A DNA stretch of 64,000 nt from contig JANOVM010000057.1 of the NCBI GenBank assembly GCA_031417395.1, positions 18,078-82,077 of the forward strand. Direction: 5' to 3'. The position numbers and the translations under genes were made by a program. Source of the DNA: Bacteroidota bacterium. Its GTDB lineage: Bacteria > Bacteroidota > Bacteroidia > AKYH767-A > 2013-40CM-41-45. A model generated the notes under the pieces. It was not told the DNA's origin, did no database searches, and worked only from the letters and a program-made list of their open reading frames with translations. Each line of letters opens with the position of its first letter. Position 1 is the stretch's first letter. Below, in pieces: positions 510-6,628 of this stretch.

Positions 510-2081
510 ATGACAAAAATTTTACAACTTCTAATTTTGCTTACATGCAGTAATGTGGCATTAGCGCAACATGTCGCCTGGTTGCAAAGCGACACACTTG
601 GTTACAATTCCAATCCGCAGTTGCCGGTGCACAAGCTGGCAGCTACAAGTCAGGGAGCAGTCGTGGCGAAACTCAGCTCTTCGAATCAGTTGTTTGGCAA
701 TGAAATATTAGGCGATTATGCTCTGGATAATTTAGATAGCACCGGATCTTTGTTGTGGCGAATGATGATATATGGGAAAGTGAAAGTTGCTGCTTTGGCA
801 GTTGACGGTGCAGAGAATATTTATTTGGGCGGCGACTATATGGATACTTTGTTCATTAATAGCTCTGATACGATGCTAAATACTGGTTCCGGCTTTGATA
901 AAAATTATTTTCTGATGAGCTTTTCTCCTCAAGGGGTTTTACGATGGAAGAAAAATTTGTCGCTGACCAACAATAATATTTATGATATCACAACGTTGGC
1001 AAAAGATGCCAATGGATCGGTGTGGTATGTTATGCAGCGCTTAACCTCCTTTGAGCATCAGATTACGAAACTGGATAGCAATGGCAATGAGTTAACAACG
1101 TATACAACATCCGATACTCGCTTATGCAATAGCATCAGTTTTGATGCTAATAATAATTTATACCTGGCCGGATCCACAGAGAATGGAATCATCAGCATTA
1201 ATGGTCTAACGGAATTGGTTCCGGAATCGTATATGATGTTTGTGTCGCGCATCAACAATGCAGGACAAACATCGTGGATAAGATTGGCATTCGATATCAC
1301 TTTTCAAACTCCTCAGGTAGTTGCACTGCCAGCGGGAGATGCTATTCTCGGTGGAAATAATTTTGATTCGACAACTTGGGGCTCGATTAATTTCCCCAAT
1401 AATTTTTTCGGAACCAGTTTTTTCCTGACAAGAGTCGACAGCAATGCTAATTTTTTATGGGGATATGGTTTGCCGTTGAACGACACAGGATATTTCGATG
1501 TAGGAAGTGGACATTTTTTTGATGTTGATGCAGATGAAAATATTTATGTAACAGGAACCATGCAAGGGACCATTCATTTTACACCGTCGTTGGTAGTGAA
1601 CAGCGGTATACCGGCGACGTATAATTTAGGAATCTTGAAATTGACCGGTGGAGGACAAGTGCTGTCATTAAAATTAGGGGGCGGCATGAATTCAAATTAT
1701 CCGCAAGACCTATGGATGAGCGGAGTCGACAAAGGATATGTAGTGGCAACAATACTTGGCGAGGCTATTTTTGACTCGTTAACATCCGGAGTAGCCGGCT
1801 TACAATCTGCTTTAGTTATTCATTTCGATGATGGCAACACAACAACAGGCATATATCCTATGAATGGCAAAGAATGGTCTGTCTATCCCAATCCATTTAC
1901 CGATCGATTGGTATTGCAAGGCATTGATGAAAAAGTAAAAGTTGAATTCCTGAATGTACTTGGAAACGTAGTGAGTGAACAATACACGATGAATGGAGAA
2001 ATTAAATTGCCGTCGCTGGCTAAAGGAATTTATTTTTTACGAGTAGGTAATCAGGTGAAGCGAATGGTGAAGGAGGAGTGA
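510..2081 (+). CDS. secreted protein with T9SS C-terminal sorting domain (Por_Secre_tail-like)
   Basis: N-terminal signal peptide (MTKILQLLILLTCSNVALAQ). The C-terminus VYPNPFTDRLVLQG...GIYFLRVGN matches the type A T9SS CTD pattern. The internal region has propeller-like repeats. Confidence 0.7.
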   Translation: MTKILQLLILLTCSNVALAQHVAWLQSDTLGYNSNPQLPVHKLAATSQGAVVAKLSSSNQLFGNEILGDYALDNLDSTGSLLWRMMIYGKVKVAALAVDGAENIYLGGDYMDTLFINSSDTMLNTGSGFDKNYFLMSFSPQGVLRWKKNLSLTNNNIYDITTLAKDANGSVWYVMQRLTSFEHQITKLDSNGNELTTYTTSDTRLCNSISFDANNNLYLAGSTENGIISINGLTELVPESYMMFVSRINNAGQTSWIRLAFDITFQTPQVVALPAGDAILGGNNFDSTTWGSINFPNNFFGTSFFLTRVDSNANFLWGYGLPLNDTGYFDVGSGHFFDVDADENIYVTGTMQGTIHFTPSLVVNSGIPATYNLGILKLTGGGQVLSLKLGGGMNSNYPQDLWMSGVDKGYVVATILGEAIFDSLTSGVAGLQSALVIHFDDGNTTTGIYPMNGKEWSVYPNPFTDRLVLQGIDEKVKVEFLNVLGNVVSEQYTMNGEIKLPSLAKGIYFLRVGNQVKRMVKEE

Positions 2082-2139
2082 GAATGAAAGACATTTTTAG
2101 TAAACCGTAATCATTGTCGAAATTCGTATATTCGCACCA

Positions 2140-2430
2140 ATGGTTAGCCAACTCACACCCTCACTTTTTTGGGATATCGATAAACAAACGCTTTCTGAAG
2201 TGGATCATGCAGGTTTTATCATCCGGCGCGTGTGCATGTTAGGCACCTGGAACGATTGGCTATTGCTAAAAGAAAAGTATGGTTTAGATAGGATCAAATC
2301 AGAACTTATACTAGCACGTCATCTGGATCACAAAACGCTGAATTATTTTAGTTTGATTTTGAATGTCCCTAAAGAAAAATTTCGATGTTATTCTTTTCAG
2401 CAGTCAGTCCCGAAGCACTGGAATTATTAA
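2140..2430 (+). CDS. small protein overlapping the start of an AbiEii-like gene; putative cognate antitoxin or partner
   Basis: The 96-aa ORF overlaps the downstream nucleotidyltransferase ORF by 46 bp in a different frame, an arrangement that suggests translational coupling. MenT/AbiEii-type toxins are typically preceded by small antitoxin genes. I did not recognise a domain by eye. Confidence 0.4.
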   Translation: MVSQLTPSLFWDIDKQTLSEVDHAGFIIRRVCMLGTWNDWLLLKEKYGLDRIKSELILARHLDHKTLNYFSLILNVPKEKFRCYSFQQSVPKHWNY

Positions 2431-3002
2431 GAGAAGTTCAGGGCCTTCCGATCCTGAATGATTTTTATCTTGTTGGAGGTACGGCACTCGCTTTGCGGTA
2501 TGGGCATCGAATTTCTGTTGATCTGGATTTTTTTACTGAGAAAGAATTTGATACGAGTTCTCTGATTGATACACTCAAAGAGAAGTTTTCTGTTCGTGTT
2601 TTGTCGCAAGCCAAAAACTCATTGACATTGGATCTTCGCTCTGTCAAAACGGATTTCATCAGACATAATTATCCCATATTAAAACCATTCGTAAAAGCAG
2701 ATGAAATTAAAATGGCTTCCGTTGAAGATATAGCAGCCATGAAACTCAATAGTACCATGAACCGCGGTGCCAAAAAGGATTTTTATGATATTTATGAATT
2801 GCTGAATCATTTCACATTACAGGAGCTGATTACTTTTTATAATTCCAAATATGATTTTTCCTCTCAACTGATCGTACTTAAAAGTCTGGTTTATTTCGAC
2901 GACGCTGAACAGGAACCGGACCCTGTTACAGTTAAGCCGGTATCATGGAGTTTGGTAAAGCAAAGGATTTCGGAGGAAGTAGGTTTATTCGCAAGAAATT
3001 AA
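2385..3002 (+). CDS. AbiEii/MenT-like nucleotidyltransferase (toxin of a type IV/VII TA or abortive-infection module)
   Basis: The N-terminal motif LVGGTALALRYGHRISVDLDFF is the GG-TAL...R.S.DLD nucleotidyltransferase signature of the AbiEii/DUF1814 family. The upstream frame is closed by a stop at 2370-2372, so the ATG at 2385 is the start. Confidence 0.65.
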   Translation: MLFFSAVSPEALELLREVQGLPILNDFYLVGGTALALRYGHRISVDLDFFTEKEFDTSSLIDTLKEKFSVRVLSQAKNSLTLDLRSVKTDFIRHNYPILKPFVKADEIKMASVEDIAAMKLNSTMNRGAKKDFYDIYELLNHFTLQELITFYNSKYDFSSQLIVLKSLVYFDDAEQEPDPVTVKPVSWSLVKQRISEEVGLFARN

Positions 3003-6000
3003 TAAAAGACTGTAACAGAACCAAGATAAACATGTGTTTTCCCAAAAACGTCTGTCACCTTTGCTCTCCAAACATAAACATCCTGTTGTACAGGATTGCC
3101 GTTGATGGTTCCATTCCACTGACAAGAAGAGGACATTCCTTCATTGCCATAGGTATCGTAAGGAACATTAGAACCTTCCTCGTGACATGACCAGATTTTC
3201 AATCCCCAACGATCATAAATCCAGAAGTCGTAATTTTTAATACCCATTCCTTTAGCGTAAAAGAGATTGTTTTCGGAATCTCCATTTGGTGTGAATGCAT
3301 TAGGAACAAAGAAGGTGAAGTTTGGATTGATTTCATTAGGTTTAACAATGGTGTCTTTACATCCATACTCTGTGGTTACGATTAGTGTAGTGTAAAATTT
3401 GTAAAAGTCGTTTCCTGATGCTGATGAATAGAAATGCTTTTCAACAGGACCGCCATGTACAATACTTGAACTATCACCAAAATCCCATGTCCAATGAACA
3501 ACATTAGAAGAAGACTGATCCAGGAATGTAAGCGTCGGCGGATAATTTCCGGCTAAATCAGTGCTTATGCTAAAATCTGCAACAGGGTTTGAATAGACTT
3601 TAATAATATTATCAAAATATTTATAAGCGGAACAACCTAAATCGTTAACAACAGTAATCGATGCATCATAATACCCGGGAGTGTTGTAACAGACCTCGTC
3701 GGGATTTTGAGAAAAAGAAATACTCGGACTTCCACCCGGGAAATTCCATCCCCATTGAACAATGGAGCCATCTGCAGAAGTTGAAAGATCAATAAACGTA
3801 TGACAAAAAGGAATACAGCCGGTATCCGGACTATTAATCTGAATTTCGGGAAGCTTATAGACTGTAGCTGTTCCGTTGGAAGTATCTCTACAGCCTTTTT
3901 GTGTCTCTGCAATTAATGTTATTGGGAATGTACCTGTCGTGTCAAAACGGATAATAGGATTTTCTAATTGCGAAGAATCAGGTTGCCCATAAGGAACAGA
4001 CCAATGATAATCTAATCTGGCCCCATTACTAACGGATGATTGATTAACCAGGGTAACGGTACTGTTTTTACAAAGTGTTGGAGAAACAAATGAAGATAAT
4101 GGTAATGGGAAAACATTAAGTGTAAATGCTGCTGTATCAACACAACCTCCGTTAGCACTGGCAATAAGATTAACGGTATAGGACCCGGGAGTAGAAAATG
4201 TAACAACAGGATTTGCTGCAGTAGAGGAAGTCATAGAACCACCGGGAATAATCCATGAATAGGTAATGTTTGCACCGGCAGGTTGAACGGAAGAATTATT
4301 CGAAAAGATTATTTCCGAACCGGCGCATATATCCGGTAAGGAGAAATCAGCATGAGGATTAGCTGAAACAATAACTTGTTTTGCAATCGTGTCAGAACAA
4401 CCGTGGATGGTTGTTGTGATTAACTCCACAAGAGATGTGTCAACAGTTTGAAATGTAATCACCGGATGTGTTTGCGAAGAGGCAGCAGGAACAGCGTTTT
4501 CAAAATTCCATGCATAGGTTGCAAGAGTATCTCCCGGGAAGGCAGTAGATAAATTAGTAATACTATATGGCGTGCCCGCACAGTTTATCGGCGCATTAAA
4601 ATCAGCTTGAGGTAAAGGATAAATGGAAATAACTTTATCAATGGTGTCTTTACATCCGCCTGTTGATGATGCAATTAATTGTATGGTTGAATTACCGGGA
4701 TTCGCATAGCTTACTGCGGGTGTCACCATAGCGGAACTGGAAGGGTTACCGCCGGTAAACGACCAGGAATAAGATAATGGACCTCCGGAAGGAGAAAGTG
4801 TTGATGTATTCGCTAAAGAAAGTTGTTCGCCGAAACAAAAAGATTGAGCCGAGAAGGAGGCAACAGGTGTTTCAAAAATATTTATTGTTTGCTGAACGGT
4901 ATCAGGGCAGCCATTGGCAGTGTTAACAATAAGTGTAATTTGTGACGAGCCGGAATTTGAAAAGGTTACAACCGGATTTATCGCTGAAGAAGCAGCGGGA
5001 TTTCCACCGGCAATATTCCAGGAGTAAGAACTGATTGTATCACCCACGCCAATCGTTGAAGTATTGGTAATGGTCAACGGATAATCTGTACAAACATTTG
5101 GAGCGGTAAAAGAAGCAGCGGGATTCTGCGGCACATTAAAGGTATATTGTATCGTATCGATGCAGCCGGGCGAATAGGTGCCGGAAATTAACGTGACGGA
5201 ATGAGTTCCCGAAGGAAAGATTATTGAATCAGGGTTTGATACATTCGATGTTGCAGGAGAACCGCCGTTGAAATTCCATTGCCAGTATTTAATCGGATCC
5301 TGTGGCGTAGGCGAAATACATTGAGAAGTGAAATCAACATAACCGCAATGCGTTGTATATATATAATTAGCAGACACTGAAAAATGTTGCGGAACATAAC
5401 GTGCCGACCAATTGCATCCGGAAGGTAAAGAAACTTTCACGGTAAACGTATCTCCCGGTTGTGCATAAGAAGTAACGGTTTGTGTAGTGGCAAACGGAAT
5501 CGTATCCTTATTGAGAAACCATTCATAGGAATAACTATTAATTAAATCAGGTGATGAGGGAGCAACCAATGTATCAGGAGCATTTGTATAACAGTTCGGT
5601 TTTAAAATTACTGATGATGATCCGCATGCAAAATCCCAGTAGGAATGAGCAAAATGTCCGCCTAAACGACAATCAGCATTGGTAATAACAACAGTTAAAG
5701 TTTGTCCGATATAGTTAGACAAATTAACGCCTTCAATTGTCCAGGGCTTATAAATAGCAGTGTCGCGCATAAAGCCGCCGCCGCCTCCACCTCCACCGCC
5801 ACCACCAGTACGGGCACGGTTACATGTATATTGACCGGGGAATGATTCACTGGCTATGTAACGCTGATATGCACAGGGAATGGTATCTCCATTCGGATCG
5901 AGAATCATAAACTCAACATAGGGCATGTTATCAATCGTATGTGTTGAATCGCCCGGATTTTCCATCACAAATGCATAAGAGTAGATAAAATTTGTATCAG

Positions 6001-6628
6001 CTGCCCCAACTGTAAAACAATATGTCAATCGCTCTGCACAACCGGCGGCAAATGGATTAATTGGTAAGGAACAACCACCACCCTGTCCATCGGTCATAGG
6101 TTGTCCAAGTTGGATCGAACTCATACCAAAACCGGGAGGTGCAACAAGTGTAATAGGCGGATCTCCCGGTTTCACGCCCGGAGTCAATGGATCTATTCCC
6201 GGGCCGGTGGTAATATTAAATCTGATTGGAGCCGGAACTGCAGATGTCAAAATTAATCCAAGTGAATCATAATTTTTACCTTCTTCAGCCTGCCAAACAT
6301 CCCAACCATTTTCAGCACCCATATTGTAACAAGTACCACATGCAGAGGAGGATGATTGCCTCGAATAAGAGTGTACGGATAATTTTCTGCCTTGCTGAAT
6401 AATTAATTCATTTTGAGTGCGGATTGCATCCAAAGTTGCAGCGGGAATTTTGTTTGATTTGATTTGGTCCGAAACAGATGGCTTTTCTTTGAAAAAGACT
6501 GCTGCGTCTTTTGATTTATCCCGAATGTTTTGTGCGGCAGAATTAAAAGAATAAATGAATAGAAAAGCCATTATGAAAACAGCAATTCGTTTTGAAAATA
6601 AATAATAGGCAATACGTGTGGAATTCAT
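2999..6628 (-). CDS. large cell-surface protein with multiple PKD-like repeats and a gliding-motility-associated C-terminal domain (CHU_C / T9SS type B CTD)
   Basis: Signal/TM at the N-terminus. Repeated ~85-aa units of the type ...FSNNSS...YSW...GG...NPVVTFS..G.YTV.L (PKD-like). An 11-Gly tract. The C-terminus FFVPNAFTPNGDSENNLFYAKGMGIKNYDFWIYDRWGLKIW...YVWRAKVTD matches the CHU_C domain. Confidence 0.8.
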   Translation of the reverse strand: MNSTRIAYYLFSKRIAVFIMAFLFIYSFNSAAQNIRDKSKDAAVFFKEKPSVSDQIKSNKIPAATLDAIRTQNELIIQQGRKLSVHSYSRQSSSSACGTCYNMGAENGWDVWQAEEGKNYDSLGLILTSAVPAPIRFNITTGPGIDPLTPGVKPGDPPITLVAPPGFGMSSIQLGQPMTDGQGGGCSLPINPFAAGCAERLTYCFTVGAADTNFIYSYAFVMENPGDSTHTIDNMPYVEFMILDPNGDTIPCAYQRYIASESFPGQYTCNRARTGGGGGGGGGGGFMRDTAIYKPWTIEGVNLSNYIGQTLTVVITNADCRLGGHFAHSYWDFACGSSSVILKPNCYTNAPDTLVAPSSPDLINSYSYEWFLNKDTIPFATTQTVTSYAQPGDTFTVKVSLPSGCNWSARYVPQHFSVSANYIYTTHCGYVDFTSQCISPTPQDPIKYWQWNFNGGSPATSNVSNPDSIIFPSGTHSVTLISGTYSPGCIDTIQYTFNVPQNPAASFTAPNVCTDYPLTITNTSTIGVGDTISSYSWNIAGGNPAASSAINPVVTFSNSGSSQITLIVNTANGCPDTVQQTINIFETPVASFSAQSFCFGEQLSLANTSTLSPSGGPLSYSWSFTGGNPSSSAMVTPAVSYANPGNSTIQLIASSTGGCKDTIDKVISIYPLPQADFNAPINCAGTPYSITNLSTAFPGDTLATYAWNFENAVPAASSQTHPVITFQTVDTSLVELITTTIHGCSDTIAKQVIVSANPHADFSLPDICAGSEIIFSNNSSVQPAGANITYSWIIPGGSMTSSTAANPVVTFSTPGSYTVNLIASANGGCVDTAAFTLNVFPLPLSSFVSPTLCKNSTVTLVNQSSVSNGARLDYHWSVPYGQPDSSQLENPIIRFDTTGTFPITLIAETQKGCRDTSNGTATVYKLPEIQINSPDTGCIPFCHTFIDLSTSADGSIVQWGWNFPGGSPSISFSQNPDEVCYNTPGYYDASITVVNDLGCSAYKYFDNIIKVYSNPVADFSISTDLAGNYPPTLTFLDQSSSNVVHWTWDFGDSSSIVHGGPVEKHFYSSASGNDFYKFYTTLIVTTEYGCKDTIVKPNEINPNFTFFVPNAFTPNGDSENNLFYAKGMGIKNYDFWIYDRWGLKIWSCHEEGSNVPYDTYGNEGMSSSCQWNGTINGNPVQQDVYVWRAKVTDVFGKTHVYLGSVTVFY

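Follow-up and report, generated by a model that had tools for sequence, protein, structure and literature searches.

Layout of the locus

As summarized in Table 1, two overlapping genes, ORF1 and ORF2, were located on the forward strand near the start of the window, that is, the whole stretch of 64,000 nucleotides analysed here, and their coordinates, sizes and 46-nt overlap agreed with the preliminary description. The two flanking genes, which had been regarded as T9SS cargo genes, indeed carried Por_Secre_tail in the upstream neighbour (510-2081, + strand) and PKD and CHU_C in the downstream neighbour (2999-6628, - strand), as revealed by Pfam. The latter gene is convergent with ORF2, and no spacer exists 3' of ORF2 because the stop codons of the two genes overlap. 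The GC content of the module (0.38) showed no anomaly relative to the window (0.365), and in a related genome the same module was found behind an orthologue of the upstream gene with 91% identity. The matching GC content, the missing 3' spacer and the same-site copy in the related genome thus speak against a recent arrival of the module here, and the earlier view of an inserted module was accordingly not supported.

Table 1. Features of the two-gene locus, with positions numbered from the first letter of the window
Feature	Position	Strand	Description
Leader	2082-2139	+	58 nt, intergenic, upstream of ORF1; presumed, from its position, to be the promoter/leader of the bicistronic operon
ORF1	2140-2430	+	ATG 2140, TAA 2428-2430; 96 aa; pI 9.0; proposed antitoxin/partner
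Core DUF6922 domain	2155-2307	+	ORF1 residues 6-56; conserved LFWD motif, Gly35, Asp39 and Tyr47-Gly48 (invariant or near-invariant columns)
ORF1 C-terminal tail	2365-2427	+	ORF1 residues 76-96, VPKEKFRCYSFQQSVPKHWNY; extended, aromatic-rich, conserved
Dual-coding overlap	2385-2430	+	46 nt; last 15 codons and stop of ORF1, first 15 codons of ORF2
ORF2	2385-3002	+	ATG 2385, TAA 3000-3002; 205 aa; pI 5.3; proposed toxin
Hairpin	2436-2469	+	8-bp stem, then T-run; directly 3' of the ORF1 stop, inside ORF2; terminator-like match
NTase motifs I and II	2475-2528	+	G31-G32 ... R42-I-S44-V-D46-L-D48
NTase motifs III and IV	2742-2789	+	K120-L-x5-R127 (III); K131-D132-F-Y-D135, fitting +DxxD (IV)

A sigma-70-type scan, whose model does not cover Bacteroidota-type promoters, detected no + strand promoter in the leader, and inverted repeats of at least 6 nt were absent from these 58 nt upstream of the ORF1 ATG. 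Regarding the hairpin, the 40 nt following the ORF1 stop gave a mean folding z of -0.83 relative to shuffled sequence over 69 loci, versus -0.16 for the control region, and z fell below -1.5 in 32% of these loci versus 6% for the control region. The hairpin could conceivably serve as a transcription attenuator or as a translational element.

The nucleotidyltransferase and its DUF6922 partner

Between the stop at 2370-2372 and the catalytic core, which is conserved, the ORF2 frame contained no start codon but the ATG at 2385. The encoded protein matched the Pfam family AbiEii (PF08843, DUF1814) with 71.6 bits (gathering score 22.5, E = 1.2e-19) and 17 PADLOC AbiEii models (E below 1e-2), which bore out its earlier assignment as a DUF1814/AbiEii-type nucleotidyltransferase with the signature GGTALALRYGHRISVDLDFF (residues 31-50, nt 2475-2534). 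Four motifs have been defined in AbiEii, namely hG[GS] (I), R..DhD (II), K-L-x5-R (III) and +DxxD (IV), and mutation of G49, R63, D67, D69, K173, R180 or D192 abolishes its toxicity (PMC3985639). When conservation of the motifs in ORF2 was scored over 29 homologues of 46-83% identity, G32, R42, S44, D46, D48, K120, R127, D132 and D135 were invariant, and G31 and K131 nearly so. All of the toxicity-essential residues of AbiEii were found to have counterparts in ORF2, i.e., the near-invariant G31 and the invariant R42, D46, D48, K120, R127 and D132, the last three of which correspond to K173, R180 and D192. In particular, S44 (nt 2514-2516) aligned with the phosphoacceptors T65 of AbiEii, S78 of MenT3 and T39 of MenT1 (PMC11375011; preprint 10.64898/2026.01.19.700257); S44 and these residues share the spacing R-x-S/T-x-D-x-D, with the first catalytic Asp following two positions later.

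The AF2 model of ORF2 (pLDDT 95.4, pTM 0.89) was compared with the PDB by Foldseek, and the best matches were JHP933 (E = 6.5e-7), MenT1 (1.1e-5) and MenT4 (3e-5), with TM values of 0.53-0.64. According to this model, the fold of ORF2 is that of a Pol-beta-like NTase, like the solved MenT and JHP933 structures. A profile search of the PDB with ORF2 also reached JHP933; single-sequence searches of the PDB with either ORF yielded nothing useful, and neither had a match in NCBIfam. On the grounds of its sequence, ORF2 is a minimal, bona fide DUF1814/AbiEii/MenT-type nucleotidyltransferase with intact active-site residues.

Although the 96-aa product of ORF1 had initially seemed unplaceable in any family, it was revealed to match Pfam DUF6922 (PF21956) with 54.4 bits (cut-off 27, E = 8.8e-15), as did all 71 aligned relatives. 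DUF6922 is a Pfam family without a described function, and no mention of it or of PF21956 was found in the literature searched. It had no fold match in the PDB, a profile search of which with DUF6922 was also empty. The AbiEi models of Pfam and PADLOC did not match ORF1, nor did MazE or any Pfam family other than DUF6922, and a DNA-binding fold could not be recognised in it. Since DUF6922 shows no such fold and the leader holds no operator-like repeat, autoregulation is unsupported at the window locus. Fusions of HTH_3 with DUF6922 do exist, namely P0390, P0391 and WP_032541952.1, the last of which comes from a B. fragilis plasmid, where the next gene downstream encodes an AbiEii of 307 aa. 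These fusions resemble the architecture of autoregulating antitoxins, and their domain composition suggests that regulation in the fused relatives may be carried by the extra HTH_3 domain.

AF2 gave a confident model of ORF1, in which a compact helical core is followed by an extended tail. The tail was modelled with a pLDDT of 79-84 and contained neither a strand nor a helix reaching 4 residues, only a short 3-residue turn at 78-80; its conserved positions were F81, C83, Y84, Q87, S88, W94 and Y96. In the variants L083 and L032, which have no overlap, the tail was kept as a separate coding sequence. Some lineages (L011, L016, L051 and L079) lacked it, and thus it cannot be universally required.

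Dual coding and co-inheritance of the two genes

The reading frame of ORF2 is shifted by -1 (+2) from that of ORF1, and the overlap measured exactly 46 nt in 70 of 82 non-redundant loci. Third codon positions of ORF2 held 0.81 bits of information inside the overlap versus 0.26 outside, and second positions 1.36 versus 1.29 bits. Constraint on the ORF1 frame was also visible within the overlap, and the region coding for ORF1 only gave 0.64, 1.02 and 0.35 bits at codon positions 1, 2 and 3, respectively. This codon-position information within the overlap therefore indicated that both frames are under purifying selection. Where the overlap was absent, both peptides were nevertheless retained, the genes being cleanly separated in L083 and L032. 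At its first residue, ORF2 had a conserved start codon, ATG or GTG, in 84 of 87 loci. Overlaps between toxin and antitoxin genes usually amount to a few nucleotides, and a conserved out-of-frame overlap of 46 nt would thus be unusual, so that its earlier characterization as the classic coupled arrangement seems to need correction. Conserved across phyla, this overlap neatly illustrates that a long stretch of bacterial DNA can naturally encode two proteins out of frame. Some gene callers drop ORF1 or shift the AbiEii start downstream (as at L004 and L091).

The pair proved to be conserved elsewhere. In each of the 80 genome loci seeded with the toxin, the gene immediately preceding it on that strand encoded DUF6922, and in all five look-ups seeded with DUF6922 the next gene downstream encoded AbiEii, indicating that ORF1 is a real gene co-inherited with ORF2. 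Homologues of each protein number hundreds to thousands, and given their number and the recurrence of the two-ORF arrangement in every related locus examined, this arrangement is far beyond chance. A search for short AbiEii proteins returned more than 7,800 protein clusters, with at least 581 genome stretches confirmed. The pair spans at least five phyla, with occurrences in Bacteroidota, Verrucomicrobiota, Fermentibacteria, Desulfobulbus, Chlorobiota and others, and the pairwise divergences of the two proteins were correlated (r = 0.73; Mantel 0/999). An upstream ORF on Aquifex ece1, considered as a possible divergent DUF6922 protein, scored an hhalign probability of 12%.

Across the family as a whole, the distribution was patchy and the genomic contexts were unrelated from locus to locus. 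Many loci lay among housekeeping genes, some genomes had more than one copy (e.g., L048 and the pair L028/L060), and a Hymenobacter plasmid carried the pair next to a Fic/VbhA pair and traN/traM. The module had no match in PHROGs, and the only two matches in a phage collection were unannotated human fecal contigs labelled 'Bacteriophage sp.' A conserved bicistronic pair, a small upstream partner, an overlap, and a patchy and mobile distribution, all of which are generic marks of a toxin-antitoxin (TA) module, were thus found together.

Proposed function, alternatives and related systems

Taken together, it is probable that the pair constitutes a bicistronic TA module of the AbiE/MenAT kind having a previously uncharacterised partner, and the evidence points to DUF6922 as a widespread, undescribed antitoxin family. 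By analogy with MenT1, MenT3, MenT4 and AbiEii, ORF2 would most likely extend tRNAs at their 3'-CCA ends with additional nucleotides, and this modification would block aminoacylation and translation and hence arrest growth. ORF1 would be the cognate antitoxin that binds ORF2 directly and neutralises it, whether by blocking the active site or by inducing auto-phosphorylation of Ser44. Induced auto-phosphorylation of the toxin has precedents in the unrelated antitoxins MenA1, MenA3 and AbiEi. It is not universal in the superfamily, since MenT4 has been reported not to be phosphorylated (10.64898/2026.01.19.700257). Because the toxin gene starts 46 nt before the end of the antitoxin gene, any ribosome translating ORF1 has to cross the toxin initiation site; the overlap probably links production of the toxin to that of the antitoxin and holds it subordinate. 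Toxin would be set free once the partner became depleted, whether through an infecting phage, through stress or because the element is lost. A role in phage defence or addiction may be envisaged. We favour, with modest confidence, the more specific proposal that DUF6922 represents a fourth antitoxin family for DUF1814 toxins, unlike any solved protein, in which the conserved aromatic tail, whose codons share the 46 nt with the toxin N-terminus, would neutralise by either of these routes and the overlap would physically tie toxin translation to that of the antitoxin.

A TA pair would be expected to combine a basic, nucleic-acid-binding toxin with an acidic antitoxin. The charges here are the reverse, with a median pI of 5.3 for the acidic enzyme and 8.4 for the basic DUF6922 partner, and this counts against the TA reading. 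The same pattern would suit a pair that is not toxic but forms an enzyme of two subunits or a regulatory unit, in which the NTase modifies an RNA, a small molecule or a protein physiologically and DUF6922 acts as a recognition, nucleic-acid-binding or activating subunit. The frequent location among housekeeping genes and the absence of a detectable phage association in PHROGs and the phage collection point in the same direction, as does JHP933, the closest structure, which had no demonstrated toxin role among the results obtained; strict 1:1 co-occurrence and correlated divergence would suit any obligate heteromer equally well. However, the characterised bacterial DUF1814 members with an upstream partner are all toxins, and the AbiEii toxicity residues as well as the regulatory Ser are conserved in ORF2. 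The patchy accessory distribution in unrelated contexts, with multiple copies and locations on plasmids or conjugative elements, the likeness of the HTH-DUF6922 fusions to autoregulating antitoxins, and the upstream partner with translational overlap, which is the typical TA order, also speak for a toxin, and we thus regard a non-toxic pair as rather unlikely. Even within the TA reading, DUF6922 might neutralise without binding the toxin, as a type IV-like antagonist at the target or as a pure operon repressor. AbiE was first classed as type IV after no AbiEi-AbiEii interaction had been detected (PMC3985639), and a basic protein such as DUF6922 is compatible with DNA or tRNA binding; AbiEi and AbiEii are now assigned to type VII, as proteins that interact and work through phosphorylation (10.64898/2026.01.19.700257), DUF6922 shows no recognisable DNA-binding fold, the separate HTH_3 domain fused to it in some relatives implies that binding DNA is not the task of DUF6922 itself, and the two proteins diverge in a correlated manner. 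Such a non-binding mechanism therefore appears improbable.

The remaining explanations concern the gene models themselves. The -1 frame of ORF2 relative to ORF1 and an A-rich run, GAAAAATTTCG (2374-2384), just before the overlap would fit a single gene, either a frameshifted pseudogene or one producing a DUF6922-AbiEii fusion through programmed -1 frameshifting. This explanation is largely refuted and very improbable: two ORFs in the same frame relation occur in virtually every one of the 82 loci, the sequence before the ATG varies among loci and shows no conserved X XXY YYZ heptamer, an ORF2-frame stop immediately precedes the ATG in at least 11 loci, and both the retained ORF2 start codon and the cleanly separated genes of L083 and L032 argue for two proteins. 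The preliminary description had also envisaged a single frameshifted gene in relatives, and no single-gene relative was found among the top DUF6922 and AbiEii matches; no fused homologue occurred among the matches listed, in which DUF6922 proteins measured 89-206 aa and AbiEii proteins at most 213 aa. Finally, the omission of ORF1, or displacement of the AbiEii start, by some gene callers might suggest that ORF1 is a spurious chance ORF in the AbiEii leader. Its Pfam match, thousands of homologues, confident AF2 model and codon-position conservation in the ORF1-only region, together with the ORF1-frame constraint in the overlap, refute this and make it next to inconceivable. An AbiE/MenAT-kind TA module thus remains our preferred reading.

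System-level AbiE calls in current annotation tools need both AbiEi and AbiEii genes, and therefore the short AbiEii genes described here would count as orphans. The partner families of AbiEii/MenT toxins named in the cited papers are COG5340 (AbiEi), COG4861 and MenA1. If DUF6922 is an obligate partner, thousands of seemingly orphan AbiEii genes would turn out to be complete two-gene modules; a large, Bacteroidota-centred clade would be added to the MenAT/AbiE superfamily, whose AbiE systems are among the most abundant defence systems (PMC11375011), and a small antitoxin without a recognisable fold would be at hand for testing the generality of partner-induced auto-phosphorylation. The overlap also carries a practical warning, in that gene callers often lose ORF1 or truncate the toxin.

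Among solved structures, JHP933 from Helicobacter pylori (PDB 4O8S and 4OK0) was closest to ORF2 (profile E = 1e-4, fold E = 6.5e-7, TM 0.58-0.64). The alignment revealed the shared elements G-x-T-A-L ... R-x-S-x-D-L-D-F and K-L ... R-x-x-x-R-D-x-F-D, whereas overall identity was merely 17-18%; no TA function of JHP933 turned up among the results obtained. Mycobacterium tuberculosis MenAT1 (MenT1 Rv0078A and MenA1 Rv0078B) resembles the present pair in its short DUF1814 toxin (solved MenT1 chains of 184-195 residues versus 205 aa in ORF2), its small upstream partner without a DNA-binding domain (PMC7450476), and the Ser/Thr two residues before the catalytic DxD (T39 in MenT1, S44 in ORF2). The MenT1 structures 8AN4 and 8AN5 were among the best fold matches of ORF2 (E = 1e-5 to 1e-4), although identity in the structural alignments was merely 16-18%. 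According to PMC11375011 and PMC7450476, MenA1 has 68 aa, is related to MazE, is predicted to be disordered and contacts MenT1 via a single extended helix, and T39 of MenT1 is auto-phosphorylated upon antitoxin binding (PMC11375011). In contrast, the 96-aa DUF6922 protein ORF1 consists of a multi-helix core and a tail and shows no homology to MenA1, and a conserved 46-nt dual-coding overlap is not mentioned for MenAT1 in the passages of these papers that were consulted.

The supposition that toxins of this family are neutralised by small cognate proteins was found to apply to MenA1 but not to MenA3, MenA4 and AbiEi, which are COG5340 proteins, or to MenA2, a COG4861 protein (PMC7450476). The AbiE systems of Streptococcus agalactiae and Lactococcus, as well as MenAT3 and MenAT4, share with the present pair the bicistronic order with an upstream partner and a DUF1814 toxin bearing motifs I-IV. 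In AbiE, the likeness extends to the phosphoacceptor within R-x-T/S-x-D-x-D, where R63, T65, D67 and D69 of AbiEii equal R42, S44, D46 and D48 of ORF2, and to the PADLOC AbiEii models that match ORF2. On the other hand, motifs I and II are spaced by 15 residues in AbiEii versus 13 in ORF2, the MenT4 chain is longer (292 residues), and the COG5340 antitoxins AbiEi, MenA3 and MenA4 combine an N-terminal winged HTH with a C-terminal domain and are much larger than ORF1. Likewise, ORF1, as the stand-alone form of DUF6922 without an HTH, differs from the Xre-HTH type II antitoxins, which join an N-terminal HTH_3 to a C-terminal toxin-binding domain, while its two-domain HTH_3-DUF6922 relatives resemble them.

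Gene pair and its nucleotidyltransferase

The two genes of the module, encoding a 96-aa DUF6922 protein (ORF1) and a 205-aa AbiEii/MenT-type nucleotidyltransferase (ORF2), were found in the sequence exactly as the preliminary description had claimed, including the coordinates and the 46-nt overlap. A stop codon is present in the ORF2 frame at 2370-2372, and since no ATG, GTG, or TTG other than the ATG at 2385 occurs between this stop and the conserved catalytic core, this codon is the sole workable start of ORF2. Both families are represented by one copy each within the window. The stops of ORF2 and of the convergent 1209-aa gene (2999-3001, minus strand) overlap as TTAA at 2999-3002, leaving no intergenic room for a terminator between them. 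The product of the latter gene contains a run of 11 glycines (about 5775-5810, minus strand), the coding DNA of which is an imperfect GGN trinucleotide repeat (ggtggtggcggtggaggtggaggcggcggcggc).

Features of the DUF6922-AbiEii locus (window positions)
Feature	Position	Strand	Remarks
Por_Secre_tail protein	510-2081	+	523 aa; upstream flank
ORF1 (DUF6922)	ATG 2140 to TAA 2428-2430	+	96 aa
ORF1/ORF2 overlap	2385-2430	+	46 nt; ORF2 in -1 frame relative to ORF1
ORF2 (AbiEii)	ATG 2385 to TAA 3000-3002	+	205 aa
Hairpin	2436-2469		8-bp stem, then GATTTTTATC T-run; directly 3' of ORF1 stop, inside ORF2
PKD/CHU_C protein	2999-6628	-	1209 aa; downstream flank, convergent

ORF2 scored 71.6 bits with the Pfam family AbiEii (PF08843; cut-off 22.5; E = 1.2e-19). 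Numerous AbiEii models of PADLOC also matched it; no NCBIfam model was found for it. When 29 homologues with identities as low as 46% were aligned, the invariant residues included G32, T33, G40-H41-R42, S44, D46, and D48, which fall within the signature GGTALALRYGHRISVDLDFF (residues 31-50), as well as D115, K120, R127, G128, K130, D132, and D135. These conserved columns correspond one-to-one to the four motifs defined for AbiEii, the toxicity of which is abolished by mutation of G49, R63, D67, D69, K173, R180, or D192 (PMC3985639), and all of these essential residues have counterparts among them. Furthermore, S44 shows the same R-x-S-x-D-x-D spacing as T65 of AbiEii, S78 of MenT3, and T39 of MenT1, the auto-phosphorylation of which is induced by the cognate antitoxins and switches the toxin off, according to PMC11375011 and preprint 10.64898/2026.01.19.700257. 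A confident AlphaFold2 model of ORF2 (pLDDT 95.4, pTM 0.89) gave JHP933 (E = 6.5e-7) and MenT4 (3e-5) as the best PDB matches, together with MenT1, both by itself and within the MenAT1 complex, at about 1e-5 to 1e-4. Pol-beta nucleotidyltransferases, among them ANT(2'') and CCA-adding enzymes, followed at a greater distance. The family match, conserved motifs, and fold matches thus agree with the proposed DUF1814/AbiEii assignment: ORF2 is a DUF1814 nucleotidyltransferase of minimal size, and it looks competent for catalysis.

The DUF6922 partner and linkage of the pair

Although the 96-aa protein had been regarded as not placeable in a family, residues 6-56 of ORF1 matched Pfam DUF6922 (PF21956; E = 8.8e-15). 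A word-indexed search returned 705 homologous proteins, and an exhaustive search yielded 2,989 representatives of clusters formed at 50% identity, of which 1,069 had E ≤ 1e-10; nearly all are stand-alone proteins of about 90-140 aa. Across 71 members, no second Pfam family recurred, even when E values of up to 5 were allowed. ORF1 had no match in PADLOC, NCBIfam, or PHROGs, and neither "DUF6922" nor "PF21956" was mentioned in the searched literature of 8 million papers. One homologue (P0153), encoded upstream of AbiEii and beside an IS66 transposase, bears the JGI name "phage host-nuclease inhibitor protein Gam", which no result supports. The AlphaFold2 model of ORF1 (pLDDT 88.7, pTM 0.73) consists of a short N-terminal helix, helices 24-34, 37-57, and 64-74, and a C-terminal tail (residues 76-96) that is extended except for a three-residue turn at 78-80.

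The check on conservation of the pair proposed earlier gave a uniform outcome. A toxin-seeded scan with one genome per species confirmed at least 581 relatives, and in all of the best 80, from Bacteroidota, Verrucomicrobiota, Fermentibacteria, Desulfobulbus, Chlorobiota, Kapaibacteria, Pseudomonadota-labelled MAGs, and others, a DUF6922 ORF lay immediately upstream on the same strand; reciprocally, AbiEii followed DUF6922 in five of five look-ups seeded on DUF6922 proteins from the homologue list. The pairwise divergences of ORF1 and ORF2 were correlated (r = 0.73, 73 loci; none of 999 Mantel permutations was as high), which shows that the two are inherited and transferred as one unit. A Hymenobacter plasmid carries the pair with a 46-nt overlap, adjoining a Fic/VbhA toxin-antitoxin pair and traN/traM.

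Outside the source species the flanking genes are unrelated. The view that the module had been inserted at this particular site, however, was not supported: its GC content (0.38) matches that of the window (0.365), the convergent stops overlap, and a related metagenome contig (L096) has the module at the same position, behind an orthologue of the 523-aa gene (91% identical). On this contig, a homologue of the 1209-aa gene downstream of the module (L096:6876-7325; 72% identity over the first 150 residues) is inverted with respect to the window, suggesting an inversion between close relatives. An 87%-identical toxin occupies a different genomic context in L097; over longer timescales, the cassette is mobile.

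Some genomes possess two copies (L048; L028 and L060), and those in L048 (3699-5618; a Chitinophagales MAG) are tandem cassettes, the second AbiEii being cut to about 81 matching residues. In Spirosoma oryzae (L001:4145-4694), a RelE-family gene, the start of which is overlapped by 11 nt by a 73-aa ORF, follows the pair at a distance of about 500 nt, forming a small cluster of toxin-antitoxin modules. On the Aquifex aeolicus plasmid ece1, a short AbiEii gene sharing 40.6% identity with ORF2 is overlapped by 65 nt by an 82-aa hypothetical ORF (L093:1308-1556). The latter had no HMM match to DUF6922 (hhalign probability 12%), and may be either a homologue that has diverged strongly or a further partner family.

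The overlap of the two reading frames

Among 82 non-redundant loci, the overlap was 46 nt in 70, 34 nt in five (a Verrucomicrobiota clade), 13 nt in three, 43 nt in one, and about 0 nt in three, with a constant frame relationship throughout. The third codon positions of ORF2, nearly free outside the overlap (0.26 bits/nucleotide), are constrained inside it (0.81), where they are the second positions of ORF1, while the second positions of ORF2 carried 1.29 and 1.36 bits/nucleotide, respectively. As judged by this codon-position information content, the overlap is shown to be under selection in both frames. Two Verrucomicrobiota loci (L083 and L032) have resolved the overlap, with separate stretches of DNA for the N-terminus of the toxin and for the DUF6922 tail (...HWSR, ...NWSS), and each peptide is therefore kept for its own sake; the tail has been lost in other lineages (FRCCS-stop in L011, L016, and L051; also L079), and thus is not universally needed.

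The possibility raised earlier that the ORFs are one frameshifted gene in relatives, or are joined by a programmed frameshift, was rejected because a toxin-frame stop directly precedes the ATG in at least 11 loci, where the open frame starts at the ATG, no conserved slippery heptamer was found upstream of the toxin ATG across the loci, no DUF6922-AbiEii fusion occurred among the matches listed, and the separated variants exist. Automatic gene calls often skip the DUF6922 ORF or shift the AbiEii start downstream to give 188-aa or 119-aa products (L004, L091, L092, and L088), apparently through avoidance of the 46-nt overlap, so that database annotation of the family is systematically imperfect. 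The hairpin following the ORF1 stop may be an attenuator or due to chance; in a comparison of 69 loci with shuffled sequences, folding at this position was slightly better than in the shuffled set (mean z -0.83 versus -0.16 for a control region), a weak family-wide tendency.

Predicted function and comparison with known systems

We consider it fairly likely that the module is a toxin-antitoxin system with ORF2 as the putative toxin, in which DUF6922 is most likely the antitoxin, because its gene is small, always upstream, and entangled in translation with that of an enzyme from a toxin family, and because the cassette is patchy and also found on plasmids. Its predicted folded core with an extended conserved tail also argues for this role, since protein antitoxins that wrap around their toxins are usually built in this way. 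Furthermore, three two-domain proteins (P0390, P0391, and WP_032541952.1) combine an N-terminal Xre-type HTH_3 domain with a C-terminal DUF6922, and the last of these (L095:974-1498, B. fragilis plasmid NZ_CP054002.1) is encoded immediately 5' of an AbiEii gene with a longer product (307 aa). A DNA-binding domain joined to a toxin-binding domain is the classic antitoxin design, and the separate HTH_3 domain implies that DUF6922 would be the toxin-facing rather than the DNA-binding part. No operator repeats were found in the 58-nt leader upstream of ORF1. The median pI values of the enzyme (5.3, acidic) and its partner (8.4, basic) are the reverse of the pattern expected for a toxin-antitoxin pair, and would also be compatible with an enzyme of two subunits, with DUF6922 serving to recruit a nucleic-acid substrate.

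If DUF6922 is an antitoxin, the leading hypothesis is that it would induce auto-phosphorylation of the invariant active-site S44 and thereby switch the toxin off, because the structurally unrelated MenA1 and MenA3 as well as AbiEi all act in this way on an active-site Ser/Thr, as described in PMC11375011 and preprint 10.64898/2026.01.19.700257; MenT4 was reported not to be phosphorylated (preprint 10.64898/2026.01.19.700257). Alternatively, the aromatic DUF6922 tail might simply occlude the enzyme. Because the toxin start codon lies within the gene of the proposed antitoxin, translation of the toxin would probably depend on that of the antitoxin or be limited by it.

PMC3985639 and PMC7450476 name COG5340 (AbiEi, MenA3, and MenA4), COG4861 (MenA2), and MenA1 as partner families of DUF1814 enzymes, and DUF6922 matched none of them in Pfam, PADLOC, or PDB fold comparison. 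Within its large family, which has already been catalogued as a DUF, the pair in the window is an ordinary case. Apparently undescribed are the obligate pairing of DUF6922 with AbiEii, the partner without a recognisable fold, its HTH-fused variants, and the 46-nt overlap, which is conserved across phyla and under selection in both frames. In toxin family and predicted function, the module is of the AbiE/MenAT type. It differs from AbiE proper in having no AbiEi and from MenAT1 in that its partner is not homologous to MenA1, whereas in overall design, a short toxin with a small non-DNA-binding partner, MenAT1 is its closest analogue.
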